Position numbers and translations under genes: made by a program. From NCBI GenBank assembly GCA_039815185.1, contig JBCBZT010000007.1, forward strand, positions 32,001 through 96,000: a stretch of 64,000 bases of DNA, in the 5' to 3' direction. This DNA comes from Cyanobacteria bacterium P01_A01_bin.123. Its GTDB lineage: Bacteria; Cyanobacteriota; Cyanobacteriia; Phormidesmidales; Phormidesmidaceae. Each line of letters begins with the position of its first letter. Position 1 is the first letter of the stretch. A model generated the notes under the pieces. It saw only the letters and a list, made by a program, of their open reading frames with translations. It did no database searches and was not told the origin of the DNA. This document shows positions 22,557 through 42,492 of the stretch, one piece after another.

Positions 22557-22579
22557 GTACCCTAGTGGGGAATATCCAA
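22557..22579 (+). promoter_or_regulatory. 23-bp motif, copy 1, upstream of TPR-CHAT gene 1
   Basis: GTACCCTAGTGGGGAATATCCAA; four copies with identical spacing; function inferred. Confidence 0.6.
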
Positions 22580-22752
22580 GACTGGAAAAGATGTCTAATA
22601 CTTGTTAAAAGAAAACATGGTTGTTTTGCAATGATGGCCGCTGACAGGTGCGATCGCCTCCGTTCTAGTTAGGGAAAAGGGGATGTCCTTGCCGTTGCTG
22701 GGCGCAGCATTGATGCTCAGGGGAGAGGCTCAATAGATGGAGCATAGTTGCC

Positions 22753-25700
22753 ATGCACAGTAAGCAGCGATGGTTAGGGCTAATGCCTTTGGCCTTATTG
22801 GTGTGTGGCCTACCTGTGATGGCCAGGGGAGCATTGCAACCCGCAGTTTTGCAGGATAGGAATACCGAACTAAAAGCAGTGCCCCTGACAAAGGAAGTGC
22901 TACAGGGTCGCTCTCAAAATTCAGGGTCTAGTGGGTCGAAGCAATCTGTCATTGGGCAAGATAGCTTATTGCGAGTTGAAGGGAGCCTATCCGAGGGAGA
23001 CGCCACTCTCAATGACGGCAGCCTATATGAAGAACACACGTTCCAGGGACAGGCAGGGCAGATTGTCAGAATCACGCTGGAAAGTGGTGTATTCGACACC
23101 TATTTGCTACTAGTAGCGCCATCGGGAGCACTCATTGCTGAAGATAACGATGGTGGTAGCGACAGCAATTCTGAAATCGTTGTGCAGTTACCTGAGGATG
23201 GGCCATACCGAGTATTGGCGAATGCCTATGACCAGACTGGACGGGGAGCGTATCAGCTTGTAGCTGTCATGGCTAACGTTGAGGATTTCTCTCAAGTAGA
23301 GGCCGATCGTCTTTTTCAGCTTGGTATTGACCAGTTTCGTGTCAGCCAGTTTCGAGCGGCACTAGCATCATGGCAAGCAGCTTTGGAGCTTTATCGAGTG
23401 CTTGAAAATCGCCAGGGGGAAGCAAACTCACTGGGGAATTTAGGTCTGGCTTACGACAGCCTGGGCAACTATCAGCAGGCCATCGACCACCATCAACAAT
23501 CCTTGGCCATCAAGCGTAACCTCGGCGATCGCCGAGGGGAGGCAAACTCATTGAGCAATCTAGGCCTAGCCTACGACAGCCTAGGCAACTACCCGCAAGC
23601 CATCGACTATTATCAGCAAGCTTTAGACATTGCTCGCGATATCGGCGATCGCCCAGGGGAAGCTGCCTCATTGGGCAATCTGGGCAATGCTCACTATAGT
23701 TTGGGAGATTATCGGCAGGCCATCAACTATCTTACGCAAACCTTAGCGATCGCCCGTGATATCGGTAACCGTCAAAGGGAGGCAGGTTCATTAGGAAATT
23801 TGGGTCTTGCTCACTATAGTTTGGGAGATTACCCGCAAGCCATCGACTATTATCAGCAAGCCTTAGCCATTGCTGGCGATATCGGTAACCGCCAGGGGGA
23901 AGCGAATGCATTGGGCAATCTGGGCAACACCTACCGCAATTTGGGGAATTACCAGCAGGCGATTGACTACCATCAACAATCCTTAGCCATTGCCCGCGAT
24001 ATCGGCGATCGGCAGGGGGAGGTGAACTCATTGGGCAATCTGGGCAACGCCTACCGCAGCCTGAGAGACCATGAACAGGCCATTAGTCATCATGAGCAAT
24101 CTTTAGACATTGCTCATGATATTGGCTATCGCCAGGGGGAGGCGAATGCTTTAGGGAGTTTGGGCAACACCTATCACCGTCTAGGGGACTACCAGCAGGC
24201 CATCGACTACCATCAGCGACACCTAGCCATTGCCCGCGATATTAGCGATCGGCAGGGGGAAACGAACTCATTAGGAAACTTGGGTAGTGCTTACGGTAAT
24301 CTTGGAAACTACTCGCAAGCCATCGATTACTTTGAGCAAACTTTAACTATTGCCCGCGACATCGGCAACCAAGCTGGTGAGGCCAATGCTCTGAACAATC
24401 TTGGCTTTGCTTATCTGTGGTTGAACCGTCTTGCAGAAGCAGAAGATGTTTTCTTGAACGCGATCGCTGTTTTAGAAAACTTACGCAACACTGGCTTAAG
24501 CGATGCTGACAAAATTCGTTTTTTTGATACCCAGACTAATGCTTACAAAGGGCTTGAACAGGCACTGATTCTGCAAGATAAGCCAGTCCAAGCTTTAGAA
24601 GTGGCCGAGCGGGGACGTTCCCGCGCATTCATAGAGTTGTTAGCCGAACGTCTATCTCTGCAGCAGGCAGAACAACTCTCCTCAGAACCACCAGACTTTA
24701 CCAAAATTCAGCAGATTGCGGCTGCTCAACAGGGTGTTTTGGTGGAATATTCACTGATTAACGGTGGACCTGACAGTCCTTCTCTCTATATATGGGTTGT
24801 ACAACCCGATGGTGAACTAGACTTTCGCAAGGTGTCCCTAGACGATAACGCCCTTGACTTAGCCGAGTTGGTTAGCCAGAGCCGACAGTCCATCGGTGTG
24901 CGTGGCAGGGGCGGTGGATTTGAGCTGGTGGAGGCCCCCACTGGAAATGAGCAACTGCGCCAACTGTATCAACTCCTGATTGAGCCGATTGCTGACCTAT
25001 TACCCCCCCATCCAGAACAACGGGTCATCTTCATGCCCCAGGGTGAGTTATTCCTGGTGCCATTTCCCGCCCTGATTGATGAATCAGGCGATTACCTAAT
25101 TGAGAAGCACACCATATTAACTGCGCCGTCTATTCAAACTTTAGATCTCACTCGACGACAGCGCATGGTTCTTGAAATTTCCGATTCACTGGAGGCTGAA
25201 TCTATCCTCACTGTGGGTAATCCCACCATGCCGGAGGTATGGAACCCAGATGCATCTGCCTATCAGCAACTGTCTAACTTGCCGGGGGCAGAGCGAGAAG
25301 CCTTAGAGATTGCTAACTTCTTCAATATCCAACCCTTGCTCAATGCTGATGCGACGGAGCAGATGATCAAACAGCGGATTGAAGCTGCTCGTATTGTTCA
25401 CTTGGCAACTCACGGTTTATTGGAATATGGCACTCCTGAGGACTCTGGCGTGAGAGATTTACCCGGGGCCATTGCCTTAGCGCCAGGGCAGGGTGAAGAC
25501 GGTTTACTCACCTCTGCTGAAATTAGAACCTTTAACTTGCAAGCAGAGTTGGTCGTGCTTAGTGCCTGTGATACTGGCCGGGGCCGCATTACTGGGGATG
25601 GGGTGATTGGGCTGTCTCGATCTTTTATCGAAGCCGGAACACCCAGCGTGATTGTGTCTCTGTGGTCGGTACCAGATGCGCCGACGGCAGAGTTGATGAC

Positions 25701-25833
25701 GGAGTTTTATCGACAGTTGCAGCAGGGGCAGGATAAGGCTCAGGCGTTGCGACAGGCAATGTTGACAACGTTAGAGAATCATTCTGAACCAAAGGACTGG
25801 GCGGCGTTTACGTTGATTGGGGAAGCGGATTGA
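22753..25833 (+). CDS. Signal peptide-PPC-TPR-CHAT protease 1
   Basis: Signal peptide; PPC-like domain (HTFQGQAGQIVRITLES..FDTYLLL); 40-aa TPR repeats; CHAT dyad HLATHG / LSACDTG; WAAF end. Confidence 0.93.
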   Translation: MHSKQRWLGLMPLALLVCGLPVMARGALQPAVLQDRNTELKAVPLTKEVLQGRSQNSGSSGSKQSVIGQDSLLRVEGSLSEGDATLNDGSLYEEHTFQGQAGQIVRITLESGVFDTYLLLVAPSGALIAEDNDGGSDSNSEIVVQLPEDGPYRVLANAYDQTGRGAYQLVAVMANVEDFSQVEADRLFQLGIDQFRVSQFRAALASWQAALELYRVLENRQGEANSLGNLGLAYDSLGNYQQAIDHHQQSLAIKRNLGDRRGEANSLSNLGLAYDSLGNYPQAIDYYQQALDIARDIGDRPGEAASLGNLGNAHYSLGDYRQAINYLTQTLAIARDIGNRQREAGSLGNLGLAHYSLGDYPQAIDYYQQALAIAGDIGNRQGEANALGNLGNTYRNLGNYQQAIDYHQQSLAIARDIGDRQGEVNSLGNLGNAYRSLRDHEQAISHHEQSLDIAHDIGYRQGEANALGSLGNTYHRLGDYQQAIDYHQRHLAIARDISDRQGETNSLGNLGSAYGNLGNYSQAIDYFEQTLTIARDIGNQAGEANALNNLGFAYLWLNRLAEAEDVFLNAIAVLENLRNTGLSDADKIRFFDTQTNAYKGLEQALILQDKPVQALEVAERGRSRAFIELLAERLSLQQAEQLSSEPPDFTKIQQIAAAQQGVLVEYSLINGGPDSPSLYIWVVQPDGELDFRKVSLDDNALDLAELVSQSRQSIGVRGRGGGFELVEAPTGNEQLRQLYQLLIEPIADLLPPHPEQRVIFMPQGELFLVPFPALIDESGDYLIEKHTILTAPSIQTLDLTRRQRMVLEISDSLEAESILTVGNPTMPEVWNPDASAYQQLSNLPGAEREALEIANFFNIQPLLNADATEQMIKQRIEAARIVHLATHGLLEYGTPEDSGVRDLPGAIALAPGQGEDGLLTSAEIRTFNLQAELVVLSACDTGRGRITGDGVIGLSRSFIEAGTPSVIVSLWSVPDAPTAELMTEFYRQLQQGQDKAQALRQAMLTTLENHSEPKDWAAFTLIGEAD

Positions 25834-25847
25834 GGGCAAAGAAACTA

Positions 25848-25870
25848 GTACCCTCATGGAGCATATCCAA
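25848..25870 (+). promoter_or_regulatory. 23-bp motif, copy 2
   Basis: GTACCCTCATGGAGCATATCCAA. Confidence 0.6.
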
Positions 25871-25896
25871 AAGCCGTATTTAATTATTTAATTAAA

Positions 25897-27095
25897 CAGG
25901 ACTTACGCATTGACAAATGAGTAAATTCGTGGGTTGGAGATAAAAGGTGTTTTCAGGACTTACGCATTGACAAATGAGTAAATTCGTGGGTTGGAGATAA
26001 AAGGTGTTTTATCGAGCAACCCTTGCGCATCGCCACTAAACCCTCAACCGCTCACTGCACGATCGATCTCTACGTCCGCTATCTGCTCGCCCAACCGCAA
26101 GGGTCAGGCTGTTGTGAACTTGCTGAGATCCTTAAGACGGTGTCCCATGACAGCATCAATCGATTCCTGTGCCGAGAACGCTATGAGCCGAAGGATCTCT
26201 TTGATGAACTGGTCAATCAAGGCTGGCTAGATTTAGTCGGTGGCGTGTTGAGCGTAGACGATACGGTGCTGGAGAAACCCTACTCACAGCGAGAAGCCAC
26301 GGCTCTTTTAGGCTATTTCTGGAGTAGTAAAGCTGCCAAGCCAGTGCTGGGACTCTCATTAGTCACGCTCTTCTACACCAGTGCCACTGGCTTCCAAGTG
26401 CCCGTCAACTATCGTCTCTATGACAAAGCGGAGGGCAAAACCAAAAATCAGTACTTTCAAGAGATGTGGCAAGAAGTCAGGCAGTGGGGGCTACGGCCTC
26501 AAGCTGTCACCAGCGATACTTGGTACGCCGCTAAAGCTAATCTCAACTTGCTCAAAAACGACCAGATGGGGTTTTTGGTCGGCGTTGCCAAGAATCGGCA
26601 GGTCCGTTTAACATCCCAGCAGCCCTATCAGCGGGTGGAGACCCTGACGATTCCCGACGCCGGGCTTCTGGTTTATCTTAAGGGAGTCGGGCCAGTCAAG
26701 GTCTTTTGCCAGTGCTTCAAAAACGAATCGTGTCGGTATTATGCCTTGTACTTGCCTGACCCTAAGGCTTTGGCGAGCGCGGGAGCGGCTGACTTCGAGC
26801 GGTTGCACACTCTCCATTGGGGCATTGAATGTTTTCACCGCGCCGGAAAACAACTGTGTGCCCTACGGCGCTTTCGAGTGCGCCTGAAGGAAGCCATCCA
26901 CACTCATATCTTTTGTGCTCTGCGAGCCTTTGTCGAGTTGGAATTGCAAGTTTGGCAGCAGCAGCTAGGCAATTGGGATGAACTCCAACGTCACCTCTAT
27001 CAAGAGGTCGCTCGGCAGTTCATCCTCCAAGCGCCTTTGACGAGGAAGACGCCTTGAACCCTGATGTTGTTGAATTTGTCAATGCGTAAGTCCTG
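25897..27095 (+). mobile_element. IS701-like insertion sequence with 22-bp perfect TIRs, TTAAA target duplication and a tandemly duplicated left end
   Basis: IRL CAGGACTTACGCATTGACAAAT at 25897 and again at 25954; IRR at 27074-27095; TTAAA at 25892-25896 and 27096-27100. Confidence 0.92.
26023..27057 (+). CDS. DDE transposase (IS701-like)
   Basis: SHDSINRFL, LSVDDTVLEKPY, VTSDTWY and HWGIECFHR. Confidence 0.92.
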   Translation: MRIATKPSTAHCTIDLYVRYLLAQPQGSGCCELAEILKTVSHDSINRFLCRERYEPKDLFDELVNQGWLDLVGGVLSVDDTVLEKPYSQREATALLGYFWSSKAAKPVLGLSLVTLFYTSATGFQVPVNYRLYDKAEGKTKNQYFQEMWQEVRQWGLRPQAVTSDTWYAAKANLNLLKNDQMGFLVGVAKNRQVRLTSQQPYQRVETLTIPDAGLLVYLKGVGPVKVFCQCFKNESCRYYALYLPDPKALASAGAADFERLHTLHWGIECFHRAGKQLCALRRFRVRLKEAIHTHIFCALRAFVELELQVWQQQLGNWDELQRHLYQEVARQFILQAPLTRKTP

Positions 27096-27211
27096 TTAAA
27101 TACGGCTTTGGCTTGGAGGTTCTGCGCCAAATAGTGAGTTGACCTCCGGGATTGCTCAGAGCGGCATTAATGCTTTAAGTCGTGGTGACTTGTTTGATAA
27201 GGGAATGGCAT

Positions 27212-30106
27212 ATGCATAAGTGGCATCAATGGTCAGGGTTAATCGCGTTGATGCTTCTGGCATGGCGGATGCCTGTCGCTGCAAGGGAACCACTGAGGCT
27301 TAACGCGCTAGAGTATCCACCTTTAAGGGCAGAGCCTGCCATTCTGCCGCAGGAGAAATTGCAGGCTCTGCCACAAACTGAGGTTGCCAATGACTTAAAA
27401 CAAGCAAACACATCGCAACAGATACTGCTCCAAGTTGAGGGAAATTTAGCTGATGGGGATGCCAGCTTCGATAATGGCAGTCTCTATGATGTGCATACGT
27501 TTCAAGGACAGGCGGGGCAAATCGTCAGGATCACACTGGAAAGCCAAGACTTTGATACCTACCTGCTGCTCAATGCGCCCTCGGGTGAGCAGATTGCCGC
27601 AAACGATGACGGCGGAAGCGGTACTAATGCAAAGATTGTCGTGCAGTTGCCTGAAGACGGGGTATACCGAGTGCTGGCTATCGCCTATTACCAGACGGGG
27701 CGGGGAAACTATCAACTAATGGTTAGGACTGCTGGTGAGTCAGATCTCCCTGGTGAGTCAGATCTCCAGCGAGCAAACCAAGAAGCTGAAGCCGATCGCT
27801 TGTTGCAGCAGGGCATTGAACAATATGGCGCTAGCCAGTCTCCGGAAGCCCTCGCCTCCTGGCAGGCCGCATTAGCGCTTTATCGCCAGTTGGGAAATCG
27901 CAAAGGGGAAGCCAATGCCCTGGGTAGTTTGGGCGTCGCTTACGACCGTCTGGGGGACGACCGCCGCGCTATTGACTTCTATGAGCAATCCTTAGCCATT
28001 GACCGTGAAATCGGCGATCGCCAGGGAGAAGCCACTACTCTGAATAATTTAGGTCTCGCTTACGGCGGTCTAAGAGACTACCGCCGCGCTATTGACCTCC
28101 ATGAGCAATCCTTAGCCATCGCTCGTGAACTCGGCGATCGTCAGGGGGAAGCCAATGCCCTGGGTAGTTTGGGTATCGCTTATTACCGTCTAGGAGACTA
28201 CCGCCGCGCCATTGACTTCCATGAGCAATCTTTAGCCATTGACCGTGAAATCGGCGATCGCCGGGGGGAAGCCTATGCGCTGGGAAATTTGGGCTTCGCT
28301 TACGAAGCTCTAGGAGACGACCGCCGCGCCATTGACTTCCAAGAGCAAGCTTTAGCCATTGCCCGTGAAATCGGCGATCGCCAGGCAGAAGCCAATGCCT
28401 TAACAAACCTAGCCTACGCTTTGGAAGCGGAAGCCCAACCCGAACTCGCTATCGTCTTTTTCAAGCAAGCGGTCAATACCTTCGAAGCCATCCGCGACAG
28501 CAACCGAGGTCTAGAAGCTGACCTGCAAAGCTCCTACACAGCCACCGTCGAAGACACCTATCGCCATCTGGCCGATCTACTGCTCCAGCAAGACCGCATC
28601 CTGGAAGCTCAGCGAGTGCTAGACTTGCTCAAAGTGCAAGAGCTCGACAACTACCTGCGCGGCGTTCGTCGCAACGCCGACACCGAAGCTGGTGTTACCT
28701 TCCGCCCCGCCGAGCAGGAGCTCTTGCAGCGCTATACCGCCAACCAAGATCAGCTGATTGCCCTGGGACAGGAACGGGCCGAACTGGCTAAAATTCCCCG
28801 TGACCAGCGCACCGCCGCTCAAGCCGAGCGGATTGTGGAACTGCGCCAGCTAGAGCAAGCGATCCGGCAGCAGTTCCGAGGCTTCTTTGAGCAGAGCGAA
28901 ATTGTGGAACTGGTAAATCGCCTGCGTCGCACCGTAGGAGCCGCCAACATTGAACTCGCCGAACTCAACGCCCTGCGGGACAACCTGCAAAACCTGGATC
29001 AAGACGCTGTTGTGCTCTATCCCCTCATCCTTGAGGATCGACTAGAACTGGTGCTGGTCACCCCCGATACGGCCCCCATCCGCCGCACCGTCAGCGTCCG
29101 CCGGGAAGACCTCAACCGCACCATCGGCGAACTGCGCCACGCCCTGGAGTCCCCCAGTCGCGATGCGGTTACCCCCGCTCAGCAGCTCTACGATTGGTTG
29201 ATTCGCCCGATTGAGGCCGACTTGGCCCAGGCGGAAGCCAAAACCATCATCTACGCCCCCGACTTGCAACTGCGCTACGTCCCGCTAGCGGCGCTGCACG
29301 ACGGTGACCAGTGGCTAATCGAAACCTACCGGGTCAATAACATCACCGCCGCCAGCCTGGACGATTTGGACAATGCCCCATCTCCGGGCGGGTTGAACAT
29401 TTTGGCTACCGCCTTTACCGAAGGTCGCCATGAGGTACCCGTGGGTGAGCAAACCCTACGCTTCTCGGGATTGCCCTTTGCCGGGGTAGAAGTGGAAAAC
29501 CTAGCCACGCTGGTTCCCGGCACGGAGCAGCGCTTAAACGAAAACTTCAGCGCCGACATCGTCTATGAAATGGATGATTACCGGATTGTGCATTTGGCAA
29601 CCCACGCCATTTTCAATCCGGGGCCGCCAGAGAATTCGTTTATTCTCTTTGGCAACGGCGATCGCGCCACCCTGGCCGACGTGAAAAACTGGAGCTTTCC
29701 CAATGTGGAGCTAATTGTGCTAAGCGCCTGTGAAACCGCCGTGGGAGATGTGCCCTTGGGTAATGGGGAAGAGATTTTGGGCTTTGGCTATTTGATGCAG
29801 TTGGCGGGAGCGGATGCTGCGATCGCCTCCCTCTGGGCAGTGGACGATGGCGGCACTCAGATTTTGATGAATGGATTTTACGATGTGCTCAACCAGGGCG
29901 GACTAGCTAAGGCAGAAGCGCTGCGGCAGGCGCAGATATCGCTGATTCGCGCCGGGGAAGAGGGGCGAGCGACAGGCAGTGGTGGCGACGATAATCGCGG
30001 TGGGTTTGAGCTGGTGCCGACTGACAATGGCTCGAATCTCGACCCATCGGATCTGAGCCATCCCCACTATTGGGCACCGTTTATTTTAATTGGCAATGGG
30101 CTGTAG
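27212..30106 (+). CDS. Signal peptide-PPC-TPR-CHAT protease 2 (different CHAT subtype, with a coiled coil)
   Basis: MHKWHQW signal peptide; PPC domain; near-identical 120-bp TPR repeats; HLATHA / LSACETA; HPHYWAPFILIGNGL end. Confidence 0.92.
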   Translation: MHKWHQWSGLIALMLLAWRMPVAAREPLRLNALEYPPLRAEPAILPQEKLQALPQTEVANDLKQANTSQQILLQVEGNLADGDASFDNGSLYDVHTFQGQAGQIVRITLESQDFDTYLLLNAPSGEQIAANDDGGSGTNAKIVVQLPEDGVYRVLAIAYYQTGRGNYQLMVRTAGESDLPGESDLQRANQEAEADRLLQQGIEQYGASQSPEALASWQAALALYRQLGNRKGEANALGSLGVAYDRLGDDRRAIDFYEQSLAIDREIGDRQGEATTLNNLGLAYGGLRDYRRAIDLHEQSLAIARELGDRQGEANALGSLGIAYYRLGDYRRAIDFHEQSLAIDREIGDRRGEAYALGNLGFAYEALGDDRRAIDFQEQALAIAREIGDRQAEANALTNLAYALEAEAQPELAIVFFKQAVNTFEAIRDSNRGLEADLQSSYTATVEDTYRHLADLLLQQDRILEAQRVLDLLKVQELDNYLRGVRRNADTEAGVTFRPAEQELLQRYTANQDQLIALGQERAELAKIPRDQRTAAQAERIVELRQLEQAIRQQFRGFFEQSEIVELVNRLRRTVGAANIELAELNALRDNLQNLDQDAVVLYPLILEDRLELVLVTPDTAPIRRTVSVRREDLNRTIGELRHALESPSRDAVTPAQQLYDWLIRPIEADLAQAEAKTIIYAPDLQLRYVPLAALHDGDQWLIETYRVNNITAASLDDLDNAPSPGGLNILATAFTEGRHEVPVGEQTLRFSGLPFAGVEVENLATLVPGTEQRLNENFSADIVYEMDDYRIVHLATHAIFNPGPPENSFILFGNGDRATLADVKNWSFPNVELIVLSACETAVGDVPLGNGEEILGFGYLMQLAGADAAIASLWAVDDGGTQILMNGFYDVLNQGGLAKAEALRQAQISLIRAGEEGRATGSGGDDNRGGFELVPTDNGSNLDPSDLSHPHYWAPFILIGNGL

Positions 30107-30113
30107 ATAATCA

Positions 30114-30136
30114 GTACCCGTGGGGGGAATATCCAA
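30114..30136 (+). promoter_or_regulatory. 23-bp motif, copy 3
   Basis: GTACCCGTGGGGGGAATATCCAA. Confidence 0.6.
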
Positions 30137-30251
30137 AAACTGAACTAGTATCGATACTGAATAAAGTTTGGCTGTGGGGAGGCTGCACCGAATAGGCGTG
30201 TCGTTCCCGTCACCACAACAGCGGTATCACTTTTCAGTAAGGGGTTGGCGA

Positions 30252-33200: not shown

Positions 33201-33266
33201 ACGTTAGAGAATCATCCTGAACCAAAGAACTGGGCGGCGTTTACGTTGATTGGGGAAGCAAATTGA
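30252..33266 (+). CDS. Signal peptide-PPC-TPR-CHAT protease 3 (paralog of gene 1)
   Basis: MDKRQRWLGLMPLALLV start, like gene 1; PPC domain; TPRs; HFATHG / LSACDTG. Confidence 0.93.
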   Translation: MDKRQRWLGLMPLALLVWGAAAEAEASLRLEGLLHPHTRAKATPLTKEMPKDWPEAVISDSLKQSGAPSGNLLQVEGSLSDGDDRLPDLSLYDVHSFQGQAGQSVRISLESQDFDTYLLLYAPSNELIAQNDDDGEGTNSEIVLQLPEDGVYQIVANAYDRTERGTYQLTVESLSASQIEQADQQAEADRSLEQGIDQYRDRQYEQALASWQAALSLYRQLSDREGEAASLGNLGLVYERLGNERSAIDSYEQALVIARETGYRQSEANTLGNLSRIYNLLGNYRQGIDYHQQFLTIAREMGDRQSEADALNNLGLAYYNLGDYGRAIGLYEQSLAIGRELRDRPLDTLAPGSFVSRRSDNSVEEARALGNLGLVYQRLGNYRRAIDYFEQSLAIFPNLGDRQSEVLALNNLGSAHRFLDEYERAIDYYSQALTLAREIGDRRSEALPLSNLGDVYASFGDYDRAIESYEQALSIYREVGNRLGEANTLGNIGTIYDGLGDFRQGIELHQQALGMIREIGDRPGEAVFLANLGSSYLALNRLNEAESSFYTAIEILETLRASDLSDTDRVSLFDTQARAYKALEQTLILQNEPNEALEIAERGRARIFVELLSDRLSSQQAQPISSAPPDFATIQQIAAAQQSVLVEYSIHDSAPDGPALYIWVVQPTGELHFRKVSLADQSLDLSSLVRQSRDAMGIRGRGGFELVEGASANEQLRELHQLLIDPIADLLPTDPTQRVVFIPQGELFLVPFPALIDADGNYLIENHTVLTAPSIQTLDLTRQQRMTLGNSANPSVLAIGNPTMPEVWNPEASDYQQLSDLPGAEFEAREIAEFFNVQPLINAAATEQAVKQQIESAQILHFATHGLLEYGSPQDSGVQDVPGAIALAPSTTEDGLLTAAEIRTFNLQAELVVLSACDTGRGRITGDGVIGLSRSFIEAGTPSVIVSLWSVPDAPTAALMTEFYRQLQQGQDKAQALRQAMLTTLENHPEPKNWAAFTLIGEAN

Positions 33267-33280
33267 GGGCAAAGAAAAGA

Positions 33281-33303
33281 GTACCCGCATGGAGCATATC
33301 CAA
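33281..33303 (+). promoter_or_regulatory. 23-bp motif, copy 4
   Basis: GTACCCGCATGGAGCATATCCAA. Confidence 0.6.
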
Positions 33304-33430
33304 AAGCTGCATTAGATCTGATAATTAGTAGAGCTTTGGCTTGGAAGGCCAGGCTATGTGTCAAATAGTGGCTTTAGGGTTCGGGATTGCCTTAGGCAAC
33401 TCTGAGCGTTTGCGTAGTGGCGTTTTGTTG

Positions 33431-36400
33431 ATGGAATGGTGGGCAGTGTGTATACGGCGGCGGCTCGGTTGTATTCCTCTAGTACTTTTGGCATTTGGGA
33501 TACCTGGGGAAGCTCAAATTCCTATTGCTTCAGCATTAGAGCGGTATGAACACTCAAAGAGAGAAGCTCTCCATGACTACACAATAGTTATGATATTGAA
33601 GCAAGCCATACTTTCAGACAGTCAACCTAGTAAACGGGAGCAAGCAGACCAACTAATCCAGCAAGGCTATAGACACTATCGTGATAACCAATACCGAGAA
33701 GCAATTACCGTTTGGGAGCGCTCATTAGCACTCTATCAAGAGCTTAACGATCAACATGGGCAAGGCAATGCACTGGGCAGTTTGGGACTTGCCCATAACA
33801 GGCTTGGACAGTATCAGCAGGCCATTAACTTACATGAACGAGCCTTAGTTATTTCTCGCTGCCTTGGCAATCGAGGTGGGGAAGGCGATACCCTGGGCAA
33901 CCTAGGCCTCGTATATCGCGATCTTGGTCAATACCAGCGAGCCATTGAATTTCATGAACAATCTTTAGTCATTGCGCGAGAGTTGGGCAATCGTGGTGGT
34001 GAAGGTCGCGCTCTAGGTAATTTGGGCCTTAACTATCAAGATCTTGGTCAATACCAGCGGGCTATTGACTTGCATGAACAACACTTAGCCATTGCCCGAG
34101 AGCTTCGTGAGCGTGATATTGAGGGCCGTATTCTAAGCGAATTGGGCAGTGCTCATGCACATCTTGGTCAATACCAGCAAGCTATTGACTTACATGAACA
34201 ACACTTAGCCATTGCTCGGGAATTCAATGATTTTTCTGGTCAAGTTGTTGCCCTTGTCAAGTTAGGCAATTCCCACTTTAATCTTGGTCAATACCAGCGA
34301 GCCATTGATTTCTACGAGCAACAGTTAGCTTTAGCCCAGGAACTCCATAACCGGGGCATACAAGGCACTGCTCTTATCAATTTGGGTGGTGCTTACTTAA
34401 GGCTGGAGCAGTATCCGCAAGCGATTGAATCATCTGCAAAAGCTCTGGAGATTTTCCGGGAGATTAATAACCGCAGTAGAGAGGGGCAGGCTTTAGAGAA
34501 TTTGGGTAATGCCTACTTAGGGCTCGATCAATATCAACAGGCGATTGAGTTTCATCAACAGGCATTGATAATTGCTCGACAACTCAGCGATCGTAATAGC
34601 GAAGGCCGTGCTTTGGCTAATCTGGGTGGAGCCTACGCCAGCCTTGGCCAATATCAGCAGGCGATCGTATCGGCTGAACAAGCCTTGGCAATTTTCCAAG
34701 AGCTTGGGGATTGTAGTGGAGAAGGCAATGTCTTGAATAATTTGGGTGTTGCCTATGAGAGGCTAGGCCAATACCAGCAGGCTATTGAATTCTATGAGCG
34801 CGGTCTAGTGCTTGCCCAAGAACTCACCGATCGCAATGGGGAAGGTTTTGTGCTAGGTAACCTGGGCACCATCTATGAGAGGCTTGGTCGGTATCAGCAG
34901 GCTATTGAATTCCACGATCAGAGCTTAGCCATTGCCCGAGAACTGAGTGATCGTAGTAGGGAAGGTGTTGCCTTGGGTGGTTTAGGTGTTGTGTACGGAA
35001 GTCTTGGCCAACACCGACAAGCCATTGAATTTCACGAGCAAAACTTAGCAATCACCCGAGAGATCGGCAATCTTAGTGGGGAAGGCGGTGCCCTAGCCAG
35101 CTTGGGCAATGCCTACTCCCGTCTAGGTCAATTCCAACAAGCCATTGAATTCCACGAACAAGCTTTAGCTGTTGTCCGGCAACTTGGTGACAAGGGCGGG
35201 GAAAGTAGTGTTCTAAACAATTTGAGCAATGCATATGAAAGCTTAGGTGAATATCAACAGGCCCTTGAATTATCTGAACAAGCCTTAGCGATTTACCAAG
35301 AACTCGGCGATCTGAGTGGGGAAGGTATTGCCCTAGCTAATTTGGGCAATACCTATTTGATTCTTGGTCAATACCAGCAGGCTGTGGAACTGTATGAACG
35401 GGCCTTAGCGATTTCCCAAGAACTTGGCGATTCCAGCCTTGAAGGCATTTCGCTAAACAACCTAGGATTTGCGTTGAATGAAGCTAATCAATTTGCTGAA
35501 GCTGAAGCTGTACTCGTGCAGTCCATCGAAACCTTTGAATTTTTACGGGCTGATCTATCAGATGCACAACGCATCGCTATAGCTGACACTCAAGCTCAAG
35601 CTTACGCCAATTTAGAAAAAGCTTTGATTGAGCAAAGCAAAGTCACAGAAGCATTGGTGATTGCTGAACGCAGTCGTGCTCAAGCCTTTGCGTTGCAGCT
35701 TGCTATGCGCTCAGGTAACACCTCAGATACTGCTACTACCTTTCCCACCATTGAGAAGATTCAGCGCATCGCTCAACAACAAAACAGCACACTTGTCGAA
35801 TACTCCCTTTCCAGGAATCGACAAACGCTCTACATCTGGGTGGTGCAGCCGACAGGAACGGTTAACTTCCAACAGGTAACCCTATCAGATCAGCCCGTTG
35901 ACCTAGTCAACGTCATCAACGACTTCCGAGCTACCCTCGGTGCGGCTGACAGAGGCGGCGGCTTTGAACTGGTCGAGCAAGCTACCCAAGACGAACAACT
36001 ACGCCAACTCCATCAACTGCTGATTGACCCCATCGCCCAGTGGCTCCCCACCGACCCCGACCAGCAAGTCGTCATCATTCCCCAAGGCAACCTGTTCCTG
36101 GTTCCCTTTGCGGCCCTACAAAATGCCAATGGCGACTATTTAATTGAAAACCACACCCTCACCACCGCCCCCTCCATTCAAGTCCTCGATCTCGCCACCA
36201 ACCTCGCCGCCCAAAACACCCAGCCAATCTTCAACGATGCTCTGGTCGTTGGCAATCCCACCATGCCAGACATTCCTGATATCCCCTTGGCCTCCCTTCC
36301 TGGCGCAGAATTTGAAGCTATGGAGATTGGCGAGTTAGTGGGCACCACAGCTCTGATTGGCAACCAAGCCACTGAAGCCCGCATTAAGCAAACTCTACCC

Positions 36401-36838
36401 ACCGCCCAACTGATCCATCTTGCCACCCATGGCTTACTCAGCTACGGCGGCTCTCCCTTTACCATCCCCGGTGCAGTCGCCCTTACCCCTGGAAACGGCG
36501 AAGATGGTCTACTCACTGCCGATGAGATTTTGGATATGGAGTTGCAAGCCCAGCTTGCCATCCTTAGCGCTTGCGATACCGGACAAGGGGAGATTACAGG
36601 GGATGGTGTGGTGGGCTTATCTCGTTCTCTGATTACCGCTGGTGTGCCCAGTGTAGTGGTATCCCTCTGGTCAGTGCCCGATGCACCGACAGCTAGCTTG
36701 ATGACCGAGTTTTACCGCCAGCTTACCCAGGGACAGACCAAAGCCCAAGCCTTGCGACAAGCCATGTTAATGACCCTGGAAAATCATCCCAATCCCATCG
36801 ACTGGGCCGCATTCACCCTAATTGGAGAAGCCGAATAA
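33431..36838 (+). CDS. Signal peptide-long TPR array-CHAT protease 4, no PPC domain (start 33431 or 33446)
   Basis: IRRRLGCIPLVLLAFGIPGEA signal-like sequence; about 16 TPRs; HLATHG / LSACDTG. Confidence 0.92.
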   Translation: MEWWAVCIRRRLGCIPLVLLAFGIPGEAQIPIASALERYEHSKREALHDYTIVMILKQAILSDSQPSKREQADQLIQQGYRHYRDNQYREAITVWERSLALYQELNDQHGQGNALGSLGLAHNRLGQYQQAINLHERALVISRCLGNRGGEGDTLGNLGLVYRDLGQYQRAIEFHEQSLVIARELGNRGGEGRALGNLGLNYQDLGQYQRAIDLHEQHLAIARELRERDIEGRILSELGSAHAHLGQYQQAIDLHEQHLAIAREFNDFSGQVVALVKLGNSHFNLGQYQRAIDFYEQQLALAQELHNRGIQGTALINLGGAYLRLEQYPQAIESSAKALEIFREINNRSREGQALENLGNAYLGLDQYQQAIEFHQQALIIARQLSDRNSEGRALANLGGAYASLGQYQQAIVSAEQALAIFQELGDCSGEGNVLNNLGVAYERLGQYQQAIEFYERGLVLAQELTDRNGEGFVLGNLGTIYERLGRYQQAIEFHDQSLAIARELSDRSREGVALGGLGVVYGSLGQHRQAIEFHEQNLAITREIGNLSGEGGALASLGNAYSRLGQFQQAIEFHEQALAVVRQLGDKGGESSVLNNLSNAYESLGEYQQALELSEQALAIYQELGDLSGEGIALANLGNTYLILGQYQQAVELYERALAISQELGDSSLEGISLNNLGFALNEANQFAEAEAVLVQSIETFEFLRADLSDAQRIAIADTQAQAYANLEKALIEQSKVTEALVIAERSRAQAFALQLAMRSGNTSDTATTFPTIEKIQRIAQQQNSTLVEYSLSRNRQTLYIWVVQPTGTVNFQQVTLSDQPVDLVNVINDFRATLGAADRGGGFELVEQATQDEQLRQLHQLLIDPIAQWLPTDPDQQVVIIPQGNLFLVPFAALQNANGDYLIENHTLTTAPSIQVLDLATNLAAQNTQPIFNDALVVGNPTMPDIPDIPLASLPGAEFEAMEIGELVGTTALIGNQATEARIKQTLPTAQLIHLATHGLLSYGGSPFTIPGAVALTPGNGEDGLLTADEILDMELQAQLAILSACDTGQGEITGDGVVGLSRSLITAGVPSVVVSLWSVPDAPTASLMTEFYRQLTQGQTKAQALRQAMLMTLENHPNPIDWAAFTLIGEAE

Positions 36839-36841
36839 CTC

Positions 36842-39079
36842 ATGAAACGTCGCCAGCTCCTCCAAGGCTCAGCCGCCGCCCTAGCCGCCATTGGCCTCAA
36901 CCAAATTGGCCTAGAGCGCCGCGCCACTCGCTACGGCAAAGCCCTAGCCCAAAGCACCCCTCGCAAACTGGCCCTGCTCGTGGGCATTAACGACTATCCC
37001 CAACCCCAACTGCTCCAAAGCTTTAGCGCGGAAACCCTTTACGGCGCAGTCAACGACGTTGAACTGCAACGGCAACTGCTGATCCACCGCTTTGGCTTCC
37101 ATCCCAACGATATCCAGACCCTGACCAACGATCAGGCCACTCGCGAAAATATTCTGACCCTGTACGACGAGCACCTGATTAAACAGGCCGGAGACGGCGA
37201 CGTGGTGGTTTTTCACTTCTCTGGCCACGGCGGACGGGTCGAAGAACTCGATGTGTGCGATACAGATGCCTGCCAAAACAGTACCCTGGTGCCCTACGAC
37301 TACGCCGCAGAAACCGAGGGCGAAACCGTGCAAGACATCATGGGCCACACCCGATTCCTAATGGATTCGGCGTTTCAAACTGAGAACGTCACCATCGTCC
37401 TCGACTGCTGCTATTCTGGCGGCGGTAAGCGTGGAAACGTGGTGATGCGATCGCGCTTCAGCGATCAAGATCTGCGCGGTGGGCCCACCACCATCTCCCC
37501 CACAGAACTGGACTATCAGCAAGCTTGGTTGAGTCGTTTGGGCTGGAGCGAAGATGAGTTTATTGATAAGCGTCGAGCGGGGGTTGCCAAAGGGGCCGTG
37601 ATCACCTCTTCTAAAGCCAACCAGCGATCGGCAGATTACCAGTTTGAAGGGTTTGCTGCAGGGGCATTTACCTATCTGCTCACCAAGTATTTATGGCAGC
37701 AGACGGGTACCCAGGCCGTCGAGCAAACGATTAAATATGTCACTCGCAGCACCACTCGCCTCTCAGACCATTCCCAAAATCCAGAATACGAGCCAGCATC
37801 AGGGCCAATCGTCCAAACTCAACCCCTTTACCAATCCGCTCACAACTCGCCGCCCGGAGAAGCCGTCGTGACAGAAGTGGTCTCCGATACCCGGATCCGG
37901 CTATGGCTGGGCGGATTAGATGCCCAAAGCCTAGCGGCATTTGATCAGGGCAGTACCTTTACCCTGCTGAATCGAAACGGACAAGTTAAGGGAACGATCA
38001 CCCAAGATTCCCCGCGCGATGGACTTGTGGCCCAGGGGCAAGTTACCGAAGGTAGGGCTGAAGTTGGCGACTTGCTGCAAGAGCGAGTCCGCACCATTCC
38101 CGCATCCGTGTCCTTAGCGGTTGGACTCGATGATTCTCTGAATGCTGATTGGCAAACGATTGCTACTCAGCTCAGCAATCGTCTGGCCTTTTTGACCAGC
38201 AATAGGGTGCCGACCCAGCAAGCTGTGCAAGTCATTTTTGGACGCTTCACTGAAGAGAACCGTCAGACACTAATGGCACAAAGGGTTGAAGACTTGCCGC
38301 CTGTCGGCAGTGTAGGGCTGTTTAATCCGCTGCTGGAACCCTTACCCGCTGCCTTTGACCAGCCCAATGAGTCCATTGAGGACGCGATCGCCCGCTTACA
38401 ACCGCGCTTCAAAAGCTTATACATCACCCGCATTCTGCACCTCTTGCTGAATGCAGAAACCTCCCGGCTCAATATCTCTGTCTCTGTTAAGCAATCACGC
38501 GGACGGGGTGTGCCCATCCTGGCCACTACCCCCCGTAGTCGGGGAGAAACACTACAACCCACTCTGCTGACTGAAGCGATCGAAGAAATTCCGGTAGAGA
38601 CCCAAATTGAACTGGTGTTGAAAAACGGTGAAGCCCAGGATCTCTACATGAGTCTCTTGGTCCTTGATGCCCATGGGGAAGTGACCGTTCTGTTTCCCTA
38701 CGACTGGGATGCTCCAGAGGATCAGGCTTTGGTGCGGGCAGGGGAGGAAGTGTCGTTCCCTACCATTCGCGCCATTCCCCCAGAGGGCATTACCGAGCTA
38801 TTAGTCATTGCCAGCAACAACCAGTTGCGCCAGGCCCTAAAAACCATGCAGCGTTTAGCCCCAGCCAGCCACCGGGGGGCGATACCTTTGACGGAACCGG
38901 GCGAAGTGATGGCGGCCCTGTTAGATGATTTATCGACTCAAAGGGGAGAGCCTAGCGCGGAAAATCAGCAGCGACAAATGGATACGGGGCAGGTTGCGGC
39001 TGTCTCTCTGCTGTATCGCGTCGTTGCCAAAACCTGCGATCGCGGGGAAAATGAACCGCCTTGCTCGGCGCCAGCTTAA
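36842..39079 (+). CDS. Orthocaspase (peptidase C14) with a twin-arginine signal and a DUF4384-like C-terminal domain
   Basis: MKRRQLL; KLALLVGINDY, GAVNDV, FHFSGHG (His) and LDCCYSG (Cys); C-terminal N.EAQDLYMSLLVLDAHGEVTVLFP. Confidence 0.9.
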   Translation: MKRRQLLQGSAAALAAIGLNQIGLERRATRYGKALAQSTPRKLALLVGINDYPQPQLLQSFSAETLYGAVNDVELQRQLLIHRFGFHPNDIQTLTNDQATRENILTLYDEHLIKQAGDGDVVVFHFSGHGGRVEELDVCDTDACQNSTLVPYDYAAETEGETVQDIMGHTRFLMDSAFQTENVTIVLDCCYSGGGKRGNVVMRSRFSDQDLRGGPTTISPTELDYQQAWLSRLGWSEDEFIDKRRAGVAKGAVITSSKANQRSADYQFEGFAAGAFTYLLTKYLWQQTGTQAVEQTIKYVTRSTTRLSDHSQNPEYEPASGPIVQTQPLYQSAHNSPPGEAVVTEVVSDTRIRLWLGGLDAQSLAAFDQGSTFTLLNRNGQVKGTITQDSPRDGLVAQGQVTEGRAEVGDLLQERVRTIPASVSLAVGLDDSLNADWQTIATQLSNRLAFLTSNRVPTQQAVQVIFGRFTEENRQTLMAQRVEDLPPVGSVGLFNPLLEPLPAAFDQPNESIEDAIARLQPRFKSLYITRILHLLLNAETSRLNISVSVKQSRGRGVPILATTPRSRGETLQPTLLTEAIEEIPVETQIELVLKNGEAQDLYMSLLVLDAHGEVTVLFPYDWDAPEDQALVRAGEEVSFPTIRAIPPEGITELLVIASNNQLRQALKTMQRLAPASHRGAIPLTEPGEVMAALLDDLSTQRGEPSAENQQRQMDTGQVAAVSLLYRVVAKTCDRGENEPPCSAPA

Positions 39080-39103
39080 GACTATCAAGGGTTTTATGCA
39101 TCA

Positions 39104-40372
39104 ATGTCTAATCCTCCACCCTTAGCCAGAGCCGTTACCCGATACCAGTTGGCGCTGGCCCCACTGAATGCCCCAAAAGGTAAACCAGCCTCCCAATTGT
39201 CTGAGGTGCAGGTACTCGAACTGCTCAAAGCCAGGGACGAAGTACAGGCGATTTTGGATCAGATTGCGCAACAGTCCACGCCGCTCGGGGCAGACTGCAA
39301 TGCAGACTTAATCCAGCTGGCCCAACTAGATGCCCAGCTAAAGGACCACGGCAAAGCGATCGCCACCTTTCCCCAACTTCAAAACTGGCAGAACAGCTTT
39401 CAACCGCCCCCCACCGCCTGGTGGTGGCATTTTGAACCGCCTACTGACCCGCGCGATCGCGTCGATTGGCTCTGGAATTCCCTCACCCTTGCCGCCCTGA
39501 CTGCCAATCTGGCCCTGGTCACCGACATTGCCTCCCGGTTCTTTACGGGAGCCCCAGGCGTGTTGAGTTCTTTCGCGGCGATCGCCCCCAGTGTGCTCAC
39601 TCTATTTGCAGGTGGGGGTGCCTTGACCAAAGCCGGACGGATGGCCATTAAACATGTGCTTAGCCAAATTGGTATTTCCAAGCACCGCTGGCACGAAGCG
39701 CAGTTTGCCATTTCCGGTAGCTTACTGGTGCTCCTAATGATCTTTCACACCTCATTACCTAACATTGCTCGGTTCTACAACAATCGTGGTGAAATTCAGT
39801 TTTATGAAGCCGGTAAAATCGTCAGCGCCCAGGGTGACTTTCAAAAGGCACTGGCCCTCAATCCTGACTATGCCAAAGCCCAGTTCAACCTCGGGGCCAC
39901 CTATGAAGAACTGCAAGAACCCGACAAAGCCGAAACGGAATATCGCAAAGCCCTGAGCGCAGACTATCTCCCGGCTTACAACAACCTGGCCCATCTCTAC
40001 ATTGTGCAGGAGGAGTTTGACCGGGCCATTCCCTTTTTGCAGCAGGGGCTGAGCATTTTTGACCCAGCACTGCATGAGCCAGGGTTAGCCTATGCTCTCC
40101 ACAAAAATCTGGGTTGGGCCAGGCTCAAGCAAGCACGCTTACCGGAAGCGGCGGCCGAACTGCAACAGGCGATCGCACTCGATCCCGAACGGGCCGATGC
40201 CTATTGCCTGCTCGCCCAGGTATTGGAGCAGCAAGACCAAGCTGCCGCTGCCCTCCCCCAGTGGGAGAACTGCCTGAAATATGCCCGAGTCCAGGACGAT
40301 CTTTGGATTGACCAAGCCCAACAGCGCATTGATGCCCAGGATATTGATGCTCAGGAGAGTGAATCGCCATGA
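39104..40372 (+). CDS. Membrane-anchored TPR protein with a helical N-terminal domain
   Basis: N-domain ending in AWWWHF, then 2-3 hydrophobic segments, then TPRs (AQFNLGATYE, AYNNLAHLY, KNLGWARL). Confidence 0.85.
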   Translation: MSNPPPLARAVTRYQLALAPLNAPKGKPASQLSEVQVLELLKARDEVQAILDQIAQQSTPLGADCNADLIQLAQLDAQLKDHGKAIATFPQLQNWQNSFQPPPTAWWWHFEPPTDPRDRVDWLWNSLTLAALTANLALVTDIASRFFTGAPGVLSSFAAIAPSVLTLFAGGGALTKAGRMAIKHVLSQIGISKHRWHEAQFAISGSLLVLLMIFHTSLPNIARFYNNRGEIQFYEAGKIVSAQGDFQKALALNPDYAKAQFNLGATYEELQEPDKAETEYRKALSADYLPAYNNLAHLYIVQEEFDRAIPFLQQGLSIFDPALHEPGLAYALHKNLGWARLKQARLPEAAAELQQAIALDPERADAYCLLAQVLEQQDQAAAALPQWENCLKYARVQDDLWIDQAQQRIDAQDIDAQESESP

Positions 40373-41553
40373 AGTTTGCCAAATGTCTGAGTCTCTTGAG
40401 CCTGACGGCGCTCCTGGTGGCGACCTTTGCGCCCATTGCGGCTGCCAATCAAGCCGTTCTAGTCATCCGCCGGGGTCAGGTTAGTGTGAAACGCGATGGC
40501 CGCAGCAACTTTCGCCGTTTCAGAAACGGCGCACGCTTGAGCAGTGCAGACCTGATTCGGACAACTGGAAACACAACGGCATTGCTAAATTGCCCTGGGC
40601 GCTCCACCCTCACCCCCATTCCCGCAGGCTCTACCCGCAGCGTCAACAGCCTGTGTAGCCAGGGGCGCTACACCTATCGCCCCGGCGTTGAGCTAGAGGT
40701 GGGTGATTTGCGCGGGGGCAGCGACCCGATGATTCCCTTTGTCATCACTCCCCGTTCGGGGGCGATTATCTCCGCCCAACCCACGATTCGCTGGAATGCC
40801 GTTCCCGATGCCAGCCTCTACACTGTTCGCTTAGAGGTACGAGAACGCCGTAGTCAGCCAGAACCAGACGCGGTACTGTGGCAAGTTGAAACGGCGCAAA
40901 CTGCCATTGACTATCCGGGCAATCCGCCCCTGCAATCCCGTCTGTTTTACACCGTGGTGGTGGAAGCAGACACGGGGCAATCATCCAGCGATGAGGCGGT
41001 TGAGGCCCAGTCTTTTGTTGTCCGACCGGGGGGTGATATTCAAACCCAGCTTGACGAGGTGGATGCCCTGGACTTACCGCCCGCTATTGCGGCACAAGAA
41101 AAGGCTGATATCTACGTTACAGCGGGGCTAATTCCTGAGGCAATTACGGTGTTGCAGGGGATCATTGATGCTGAAATGGCAACTGCGGCGGTGTATCAAC
41201 AGCTAGGTGATCTTTATTTGGCTAGCGGGTTGCGGTTGCCTGCCGAAGCGGCCTATCGGCACACCATTGAAACCGCTGAGTTTTATGCCGATTTAGAAGA
41301 TTGGATGCTGGTGCACATTGGTTTAGCCATTCTCTATTCTGAAACTGAAGAGACTGATAGTGCTATTCAGTCTCTACGCCGCGCCGAAGTGGCGGCTTTC
41401 TATTTTTGCGATGCTGAGTTGCTCGGCCAGATTCATGAAGAGATTGCGGCACTGATGCCAGAGTCTGAGTTAGAGCCCGAGACTGAACTTGCCCCACCAC
41501 TAGCGGAACCTATCCTATGCGCCAGCCCCGACGAATCCCCTGCCAATGGATAA
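40369..41553 (+). CDS. Secreted protein: beta-rich N-domain, DUF928/FN3-like domain and TPRs
   Basis: Signal peptide; RGGSDPMIPFVITPR...PTIRWNAVPDASLYTV; TPR-like C-terminus; ATGA overlap with the upstream gene. Confidence 0.75.
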   Translation: MKFAKCLSLLSLTALLVATFAPIAAANQAVLVIRRGQVSVKRDGRSNFRRFRNGARLSSADLIRTTGNTTALLNCPGRSTLTPIPAGSTRSVNSLCSQGRYTYRPGVELEVGDLRGGSDPMIPFVITPRSGAIISAQPTIRWNAVPDASLYTVRLEVRERRSQPEPDAVLWQVETAQTAIDYPGNPPLQSRLFYTVVVEADTGQSSSDEAVEAQSFVVRPGGDIQTQLDEVDALDLPPAIAAQEKADIYVTAGLIPEAITVLQGIIDAEMATAAVYQQLGDLYLASGLRLPAEAAYRHTIETAEFYADLEDWMLVHIGLAILYSETEETDSAIQSLRRAEVAAFYFCDAELLGQIHEEIAALMPESELEPETELAPPLAEPILCASPDESPANG

Positions 41554-41950
41554 TCGCGGCCTGCCTTTTAGTTGGGTCGCCACTGTTAGCCGTGCCCTTG
41601 CCGCTGACCAGTTCGGTAGGTTGGGCGCAGACGAGTGACGACGATCGCCTAGCCGAGGCCGATCGCTTATTGCAGCAGGGCATTGATCACTATCGCAGTA
41701 GCCAGTTTAGGGAAGCCCTAGAGACCTGGCAAGCAGCGCTAGAGATTTATCGAATTCTGGATAATCGTACGGGCGAAGCGGGCATCCTCAACAACATTGG
41801 CATTGTGAACGACTCGTTGGGGAACTATGCCACGGCGCTGAACTATTACCAGCAAAGTCTGGTGATCCAACAAGCCATTGGCGACCGCGCTACCGAAGCC
41901 ATTACCCTCAACAACATTGGCATTGTGAACCGATTGTTGGGGAACTATCC
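41517..41950 (+). pseudogene. Truncated secreted TPR gene (probably the 5' part of a fifth TPR-CHAT gene)
   Basis: Signal peptide, EADRLLQQG...WQAALEIY and two TPRs; TPR periodicity ends abruptly near 41950. Confidence 0.8.
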
Positions 41951-42419: not shown

Positions 42420-42492
42420 TGGAGCTAAGCGGATTCGAACCGCTGACCCCTTGAATGCCATTCAAGTGCTCTACCAACTGAGCTATAGCCCC
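42420..42492 (-). tRNA. tRNA-Ala(GGC)
   Basis: GGGGCTATAGCTCAGTTGGTAGAGCACTTGAATGGCATTCAAGGGGTCAGCGGTTCGAATCCGCTTAGCTCCA; cloverleaf with G3:U70. Confidence 0.97.

Follow-up and report, generated by a model that had tools for sequence, protein, structure and literature searches.

In this study, we analysed a cluster of caspase-fold protease genes located from 22753 to 42167 in a 64,000-nucleotide stretch of DNA (the window, to whose positions all coordinates refer) from Cyanobacteria bacterium P01_A01_bin.123, whose genome amounts to about 8.1 Mb. The locus is genuine and represents an uncharacterised variant of a kind that is known in part, and we consider it moderately probable that it encodes a trans-envelope relay of receptor, adaptor and protease which would use proteolysis and would here be enlarged by extra proteases. 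The gene content, the catalytic residues, the linkage of a receptor gene (T), an MtxA-like gene (S) and a CHAT protease gene, and the outside TPR domain that T has in common with kinase or caspase-like receptors were all observed in the sequences. Periplasmic TPR-CHAT signalling (DdvA) and a cascade from CHAT to caspase (SAVED-CHAT/PCaspase) are known already; the T-type receptor, its coupling to an active-type orthocaspase (K) with a twin-arginine translocation (Tat) signal, and a movable Arg-Gly motif appear to be new.

An earlier note on this DNA had described eight co-oriented genes, starting at 22557, as one exported protease cascade; its observations were partly confirmed and its interpretation partly supported. 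The first gene begins at 22753, and nine open reading frames (ORFs), all in the same orientation, make up the run, including an IS701-family transposase. The components of the cluster and its right border are as follows.

CHAT1, 22753..25833, + strand: signal peptide, PPC-like domain, TPR array, CHAT domain with His887/Cys939; RGGGFELV in an internal loop
IS701-family transposase, 26023..27057, + strand: passenger in the cluster, NF049921 above cut-off
CHAT2, 27212..30106, + strand: signal peptide, PPC, TPR, CHAT domain with His798/Cys840; deeply separated clade B; RGGFELV in a C-terminal insertion
CHAT3, 30252..33266, + strand: signal peptide, PPC, TPR, CHAT domain with His865/Cys917; RGGFELV in an internal loop
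CHAT4, 33431..36838, + strand: signal-like N-terminus, longest TPR array, CHAT domain with His1000/Cys1048; RGGGFELV
K, 36842..39079, + strand: Tat-like orthocaspase with RRQLL, His129/Cys190, conserved Asp72, C-terminal DUF4384 and several Arg-Gly loops
T, 39104..40372, + strand: predicted receptor with cytoplasmic helical domain, three transmembrane (TM) helices, outside TPR domain and Cys368/Cys390
S, 40369..41553, + strand: MtxA-like, predicted secreted, with signal peptide, beta domain, Arg-rich linker, Ig-like domain and TPRs
Fifth TPR-CHAT gene, 5' fragment, 41517..41956, + strand: signal peptide and first TPRs; the ORF continues to 42167 in unrelated DNA
Tyrosine integrase, C-terminal remnant, 41969..42301, + strand: from Pfam and NCBIfam scans
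tRNA-Ala(GGC), 42420..42492, - strand: found at the cluster end, likely the integration site bounding the cluster

The tight coupling reported for the last gene borders was recovered as described, with gaps of 3 bp (36838/36842) and 24 bp (39079/39104) and overlaps of 4 bp at 40369 and 37 bp at 41517. For CHAT4, the ATG at 33431 gives the signal-like N-terminus, and the longest ORF begins at 33341.

Linkage of the genes across genomes

A profile of the T N-terminus matched 34 of the 401 genomes of the phylum and 25 of the 156 genera, and 40 of the 43 places outside the window were fetched. Around these 40 T genes, S was found within 2.5 kb downstream in 22, a co-oriented CHAT gene within 10 kb in 18, both in 16 and K in three. 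For comparison, the background of genes in this genome, itself rich in CHATs, with a CHAT gene within 10 kb was 146/6223 (2.3%) on the same strand and 274/6223 (4.4%) on either strand. Of the T loci, six had S and no CHAT; in three of these, a TPS-domain gene follows that is truncated by the end of the contig or of the fetched stretch. Anchored on K (n = 80, 45 of these loci being shorter than 20 kb), CHAT was observed in 37, T in six and T with S in five, and anchored on CHAT2-like genes (n = 79), K was observed in 11 and T in six. The observed co-occurrence of partner genes lies far above background, but the low K-T counts in both directions (3/40 and 6/80) speak against the eight genes as one fixed system. 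The counts point to T-S-CHAT as the conserved core, with K as a recurrent option.

The arrangement recurs beyond the window. In the closest K orthologues, from Nodosilinea, Leptolyngbyaceae and Phormidesmis (L080-L083, L153, L155), T directly follows K; the order CHAT-K-T-S was also found in Nodosilinea and Leptolyngbyaceae loci (L080-L083, L155, L207, L212), and T-S-CHAT occurs three times in this genome. In the annotation of plasmids from Nostoc cf. commune SO-36 and Pseudanabaena ABRG5-3, T is followed by a hypothetical or TPR gene and, after this, by genes for TPR and CHAT proteins; the Pseudanabaena copy of T has an AAA-like gene upstream of it. It is quite unlikely, in our judgement, that only T-S-CHAT is a unit here and that K and the extra CHATs have merely gathered at a tRNA hotspot with no joint action. 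Such an accumulation would fit the 26 to 29 comparable CHATs of the genome (depending on the filter), the IS701 copy and the truncated gene inside the run, and the 43 K loci without a CHAT nearby among the 80, over half of which are short as stated above. Nevertheless, the frequency of CHAT near K against the 4.4% background, the recurrence of the CHAT-K-T-S order across genera, and the motif of CHAT2, which agrees with those of its neighbours and not with those of its closest relatives although CHAT2 belongs to another clade, all count against it.

S was matched in 49 of the 401 genomes, and 20 of the 65 listed matches were picked by hand, favouring those not reached via T. Among these 20 loci, the gene upstream of S carries the C-terminal TPR ectodomain of T in 16 (E < 1e-20), often with the same CLLAQ motif, and a CHAT lies within three genes downstream of S in 18. 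Pfam scans of 10 of the 16 upstream genes revealed a Ser/Thr kinase in eight and a CHAT-like domain in two, and a likely membrane segment, weak in several, precedes the TPRs of these sister receptors. The remaining four loci comprised two CHAT-like-TM genes below threshold, one TpsB and one contig edge. Since S-anchored loci put the same ectodomain on a kinase or caspase-like domain, T can be seen as one version of a modular receptor, probably a new output type of that family, and this common ectodomain fits the inward relay that had been proposed for T. In three of the loci (L160, L161, L168), NB-ARC genes lie directly upstream of kinase-TPR receptors, and in L162 the CHAT-like receptor stands behind a DUF1822 and a helix-turn-helix gene.

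These neighbourhoods also bear on a processing function, in which exported proteases would serve the maturation or release of surface proteins, TpsA filaments for example, with S as adaptor and T as anchor only. TPS-domain genes follow S in L043, L049, L051 and L058, TpsA or TpsB genes flank several S-anchored loci, and T lacks an enzymatic output, all of which would suit this function; on the other side, the window cluster showed no TPS gene, and the fusion of T's ectodomain to kinases elsewhere points to signalling. We regard processing as unlikely, though as the foremost of the alternatives to the relay.

The encoded proteins

The four CHATs all match PF12770 above its cut-off (E 2e-60 to 2e-77) and keep the ATH[GA] and LSAC motifs, which bears out the earlier observation that His and Cys are retained, and they are predicted to be intact TPR-CHAT proteases of the exported type. 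Pfam placed 8, 3, 5 and 11 TPR_12 stretches in CHAT1, CHAT2, CHAT3 and CHAT4, respectively. It also matched an N-terminal PPC domain in CHAT2 and CHAT3; this domain, the DUF4384 of K and the abundance of such CHATs in the genome go beyond the earlier description. CHAT1 and CHAT3 are about 60% identical, and the extra CHATs appear to be partly local duplicates. In a sequence search of the PDB with CHAT3, the sole clear match was the periplasmic TPR-CHAT protein DdvA (E 0.001), and PADLOC returned only generic TPR or oxidoreductase-labelled repeat models for the CHATs. On contig C35 (75937-87468) of the same genome (G000), four PPC-like TPR-CHAT paralogues stand in tandem, bearing RAGIGVV/RGIGVV motifs.

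K contains a C14 p20 domain (PF00656) with SGHG at 127, LDCC at 187 and D72, as well as DUF4384, so the reported SGHG and DCC residues were found again, and with its His-Cys dyad and acidic S1 residue it is predicted to be a true orthocaspase; one PADLOC caspase model matched it. SGHG was present in 79/79 homologues, which had been selected by that very pattern. Among the 80 best-scoring homologues, RRx[FLWI][LI] was found in 79, with a fixed spacing to LAQ in 67/70, one search pattern covering the c-region. The N-termini described as export-like for all five proteases do resemble export signals; 24 of 27 CHATs of the genome pass a crude, permissive signal-peptide rule, against 444 of 1218 other proteins of at least 500 amino acids, but the N-terminus of K falls below the cut-offs of TIGR01409 (15.6 bits against 16.7) and PF10518 (19.9 against 22.7), and two of seven other K-family N-termini exceed that of TIGR01409. 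In the DUF4384 part, Arg-Gly occurs in three loops in 82, 66 and 64 of 86 proteins (6-10% expected).

The literature is cited here and below from the parts of each paper available to us. Bacterial metacaspases possibly carry signal peptides (PMC3501461), and surveys of cyanobacterial orthocaspases list DUF4384, with no mention of signal peptides found in their available text (PMC8283722, PMC7475262). The Tat-bearing YS pseudo-orthocaspases (SyOC; PMC6426788, PMC7889975) have the same N-terminal twin-Arg extension as K, which differs from them in its intact His-Cys dyad and in its linkage with the genes for CHAT, T and S; whether that extension leads to the periplasm or the lumen was left open (PMC6426788), and nothing on location was found in PMC7889975. 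Cyanobacterial Tat serves the periplasm and the thylakoid lumen, and a photosynthetic role has been proposed for the YS pseudo-orthocaspases (PMC6426788), so that an action in the lumen or tethered to the membrane, with the module not being an outside sensor, can be conceived. We consider this very improbable in view of the linkage to outer-membrane TpsA/TpsB genes in sister loci and of T homologues beyond cyanobacteria-type contexts, the latter being weakly tested with one Myxococcales TPR-region match. Elsewhere in the genome (G000), contig C2 (24827-27259, L007) encodes a paralogue of K which is of the YS pseudo-orthocaspase kind and has a twin-Arg N-terminus, and contig C33 (3269-16258, L006) a second cluster, of the order CHAT-TPR-CHAT-K-CHAT, in which two CHATs and the caspase have the motif R[NG]AP[VI] in common.

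T lacks a signal peptide and displays three membrane helices in both the family profile and the structure model. With 4.2 Lys/Arg per sequence in the loop between TM2 and TM3 against 0.9 in that between TM1 and TM2, these helices indicate that the N-terminus of T lies inside and its TPRs outside. The family comprises 914 cluster representatives at E ≤ 1e-10. Y14, R44, D76 and WWW106-108 are invariant in the cytoplasmic domain, the membrane region has a conserved glycine-rich GG.LT motif, and Cys368 and Cys390 are kept in 31/31 T proteins. No Pfam family fell on the cytoplasmic domain in the 38 homologues scanned, and fold searches with residues 1-226 gave nothing clear, the best being PorL (Z 10.3, root-mean-square deviation (rmsd) 3.8, 98 residues aligned) over the TM bundle only; an atlas feature search with T yielded no usable match. 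The cytoplasmic domain forms tandem repeats in some proteins and in one case stands behind an FHA domain, which points to an interaction module. In the T homologues of L074 (1686-4418) and L075 (8400-11186), the N-terminal WWW domain is present in about five tandem copies. A WD40 gene and two DUF928 genes come after the L074 homologue, and both loci have a CHAT further along downstream. On contig C55 (L001, 12726-14656), the solitary T paralogue is preceded by two near-identical genes for lipoprotein-like proteins of 188 amino acids.

The model of S (pLDDT 80.9) consists of a beta domain, a disordered linker at 98-108, an Ig-like domain and TPRs. Over residues 122-304, the Ig and TPR parts, it superposes on MtxA (4Z29) with Z 11.8, rmsd 3.4 and 160/169 residues aligned, at 11-13% sequence identity; 4Z29 ranked tenth behind TPR-dominated entries (Foldseek E 6e-4), so that the likeness is one of architecture. 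S had no MtxA match in Pfam, and 4Z29 was absent among the 60 PDB sequence matches listed, while the atlas feature score reached 0.92 to a cluster in which 21% of families are MtxA. A relation of S to DUF928 is an atlas lead only, there being no PF06051 match in Pfam and no match to the one DUF928 protein compared. Cys75 and Cys96 of the beta domain are kept in about 96% of 26 S proteins, and the conserved Cys pairs of T and S suggest disulfides and an oxidising compartment. Complex prediction with the T ectodomain and S scored 0.00, which counts neither way.

The candidate relay and known systems

In the relay that we favour, the CHATs and S would be exported by Sec and K by Tat to the periplasm, where S may sit on the TPR ectodomain of the receptor and hold one of its states. 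A CHAT would be switched on by a ligand at its variable PPC/TPR part or, alternatively, by a cut at its exposed Arg-Gly loop made by another CHAT or an Arg-specific K; the active CHAT would then cut S in its flexible Arg-rich linker or remodel the complex. Receptors of the sister loci would relay the event inward by means of a kinase or EACC2-caspase domain, and T by a helical interaction domain that is not an enzyme. K would be an optional amplifier, and envelope contact or damage the most likely input. The inward relay of the earlier interpretation finds support in the topology of T and in the ectodomain of the kinase receptors, but the cascade as it had been written does not.

Several observations weigh against the relay. 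T has no recognisable output domain, and the predicted export rests on the crude rule and the sub-threshold Tat scores described above. Eighteen of the 40 T loci lack a full-length adjacent S, one of the four T genes in this genome is solitary, the S sample was hand-picked with several loci from one genus, and the loci are related, so that the counts overstate independence. Since the cluster holds an insertion sequence and a broken gene, this copy may be decaying. Two candidate features were also rejected: a universal Arg-Gly site in the linker of S, where Arg followed by a small residue was found in just 15/26 proteins, and a motif common to K and the CHATs of this locus, K being without RGG(G)FELV.

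Among characterised systems, the closest is DdvA-DdvS of Myxococcus xanthus (PMC11506125, 8ROT), which is likewise an extracytoplasmic TPR-CHAT with a His-Cys dyad and proposed trans-membrane proteolytic signalling, and which qualifies the earlier statement that no characterised system with such an exported arrangement was known, although the present arrangement itself appeared in no account in the literature searched (with few subscription papers and no supplements). DdvA is a single membrane-anchored anti-sigma protein with an extracytoplasmic function (ECF) sigma partner, whereas here the CHATs are soluble and multiple, the three-TM receptor is separate, and S and K have no DdvA counterpart. 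A TM anchor of the DdvA type is absent, no hydrophobic segment above 1.51 (19-residue mean) being found past residue 60 in any CHAT, and no sigma model matched among the 12 ORFs from 21501 to 43698 (Pfam, NCBIfam). In the SAVED-CHAT/PCaspase system of Haliangium ochraceum type III-B CRISPR (bioRxiv 2023.06.23.546230), the gene of a CHAT lies close to that of a C14 caspase, and the CHAT activates this caspase by cutting it; here, too, CHATs are encoded near such a caspase. Its trigger is cA3 through the SAVED domain, tied to CRISPR or CBASS; in contrast, no SAVED, cyclase or Cas gene was detected in the cluster (Pfam, NCBIfam, PADLOC), and the proteases here have export-like signals.

MtxA of magnetotactic bacteria (PMC4439547, 4Z29) resembles S in its signal peptide, beta region, linker, Ig-like and TPR domains and receptor-adjacent gene. 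The mtxA gene precedes that of its neighbour receptor, a CHASE2 adenylate cyclase, its deletion gave no phenotype under standard conditions, and no protease is mentioned in the available text (PMC4439547). The EACC2-caspase systems with ECF sigma factor and DUF1822 (PMC8195603) are described, in the text at hand, without exported CHATs or S; in the EACC2-like sister loci (L162-L166), DUF1822 is present, and the gene of a caspase-like-TM receptor bearing the ectodomain of T precedes S and a TpsA-CHAT. Neither DUF1822 nor a sigma factor nor a cytoplasmic caspase domain was detected in the window cluster (Pfam, NCBIfam).

Precedents in defence, namely the control of a CBASS-CRISPR island by DdvA (PMC11506125) and the abortive infection brought about by SAVED-CHAT/PCaspase (bioRxiv 2023.06.23.546230), bring in an immune function, whereby proteolysis would free the three-TM bundle of T to oligomerise, damage the membrane and kill or seal off an infected cell of the filament. 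The position at a tRNA/integrase junction, the cassette on plasmids and the GG.LT membrane motif are in its favour. It is nonetheless, by our estimate, second among the alternatives and decidedly unlikely, as no pore-former convincingly like T emerged from the fold searches, and as PADLOC had no match for T or S, a defence role would rest on analogy.

With regard to the wider meaning of the relay, reviews treat the dozens of caspase-fold proteases of filamentous cyanobacteria mainly as cytoplasmic cell-death enzymes (PMC7475262), and this cluster argues that a large share of them may work outside the cytoplasm, in a module of receptor, adaptor and protease. From it come S as a candidate substrate, the Arg-Gly loops as a candidate cut site and T as a new putative receptor family. 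As the trigger of DdvA and its CHAT activity are still open (PMC11506125), and likewise the role of MtxA, the small plasmid T-S-CHAT cassette would be a simple system for studying the activation of exported CHATs.

The Arg-Gly loops and the cluster borders

The motif RG{1,3}FEL occurs five times in about 6252 proteins of the genome, and four of these are the CHATs of this locus, with the motif in an internal loop (slot A) in CHAT1, CHAT3 and CHAT4 and in a C-terminal insertion (slot B) in CHAT2. Among 93 CHATs, a loose form was found in A only in 46, B only in 20, both in none and neither in 27, classes which correspond to clades and come from a rule that gives false matches; Arg with a small residue was present in 50/51 B slots (about 29% expected). 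In a quick tree built without both loops, the main A clade stood apart from the B clades, with CHAT2 beside RAGI-type paralogues. As CHAT2 belongs to the other clade and bears the motif of its neighbours, the motif tracks the locus and not the tree, a result that was partly replicated. The match of A and B within loci gave p 0.0003 with picked motifs and p 0.005 with unpicked local alignment (n = 8), was not replicated in new loci (p 0.33, n = 3; p 0.54, n = 4), and was recovered between two B subclades of 36% core identity in six new loci (p 0.0013), all motif p values being inflated by the kinship of the loci. The B-subclade match does not extend beyond the loop, with 0.29 for the loop within loci, 0.18 between them, and equal cores. 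Whole-domain gene conversion as the source of the matched motifs was unsupported, core identity being 0.30 both within and between loci; short-patch copying is a possible source. Across loci, the match between K and CHAT motifs was weak (p 0.016 for 35 loci, 0.009 for 20 dereplicated).

Orthocaspases cleave after basic residues (PMC6426788) and separase after Arg (PMC11506125), and by analogy with such related proteases the Arg-Gly loop may reasonably be taken as a processing or docking site. Going further, we propose tentatively, and regard as rather doubtful, that several parallel periplasmic caspase-fold cascades of cyanobacteria are insulated by short Arg-led address motifs and read out via T as an undescribed three-TM receptor family. 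Each address would lie in one or the other of two unrelated CHAT loops and agree among the proteases of a locus, the addresses being RGG(G)FELV here, R[NG]AP[VI]PT at C33 and the RAGI/RGI type in most others of the genome. If true, this would amount to an extracellular protease cascade comparable to coagulation, whose specificity code could be read.

At the right border, the last gene had been taken for a TPR partner. Its first 147 amino acids are 66% identical over 121 residues to an intact TPR-CHAT of another genome (G421), and its TPR similarity ends near 41956, beyond which lie the integrase remnant and tRNA-Ala(GGC); this eighth gene is, as judged from the alignment, a fifth TPR-CHAT truncated by the integrase remnant beside the tRNA. 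A misassembly at 41956 is unlikely, as one contig bridges the junction without differences, from a run that is possibly the window's own source. A crude search for a shared promoter box found none, the top pattern, the sole one inspected, lying mostly in the coding tails of upstream paralogues. The IS701 copy is placed within a palindrome between CHAT1 and CHAT2 (25870-27110) with a 57-bp tandem duplication at its left end, and only a 148-bp piece of it was found elsewhere in the assembly. A Raf1 match was recorded at 42451 in the Pfam scan, and a Uma2-family gene (21501-22112) lies just upstream of the cluster, Uma2 also flanking the Pseudanabaena plasmid cassette.

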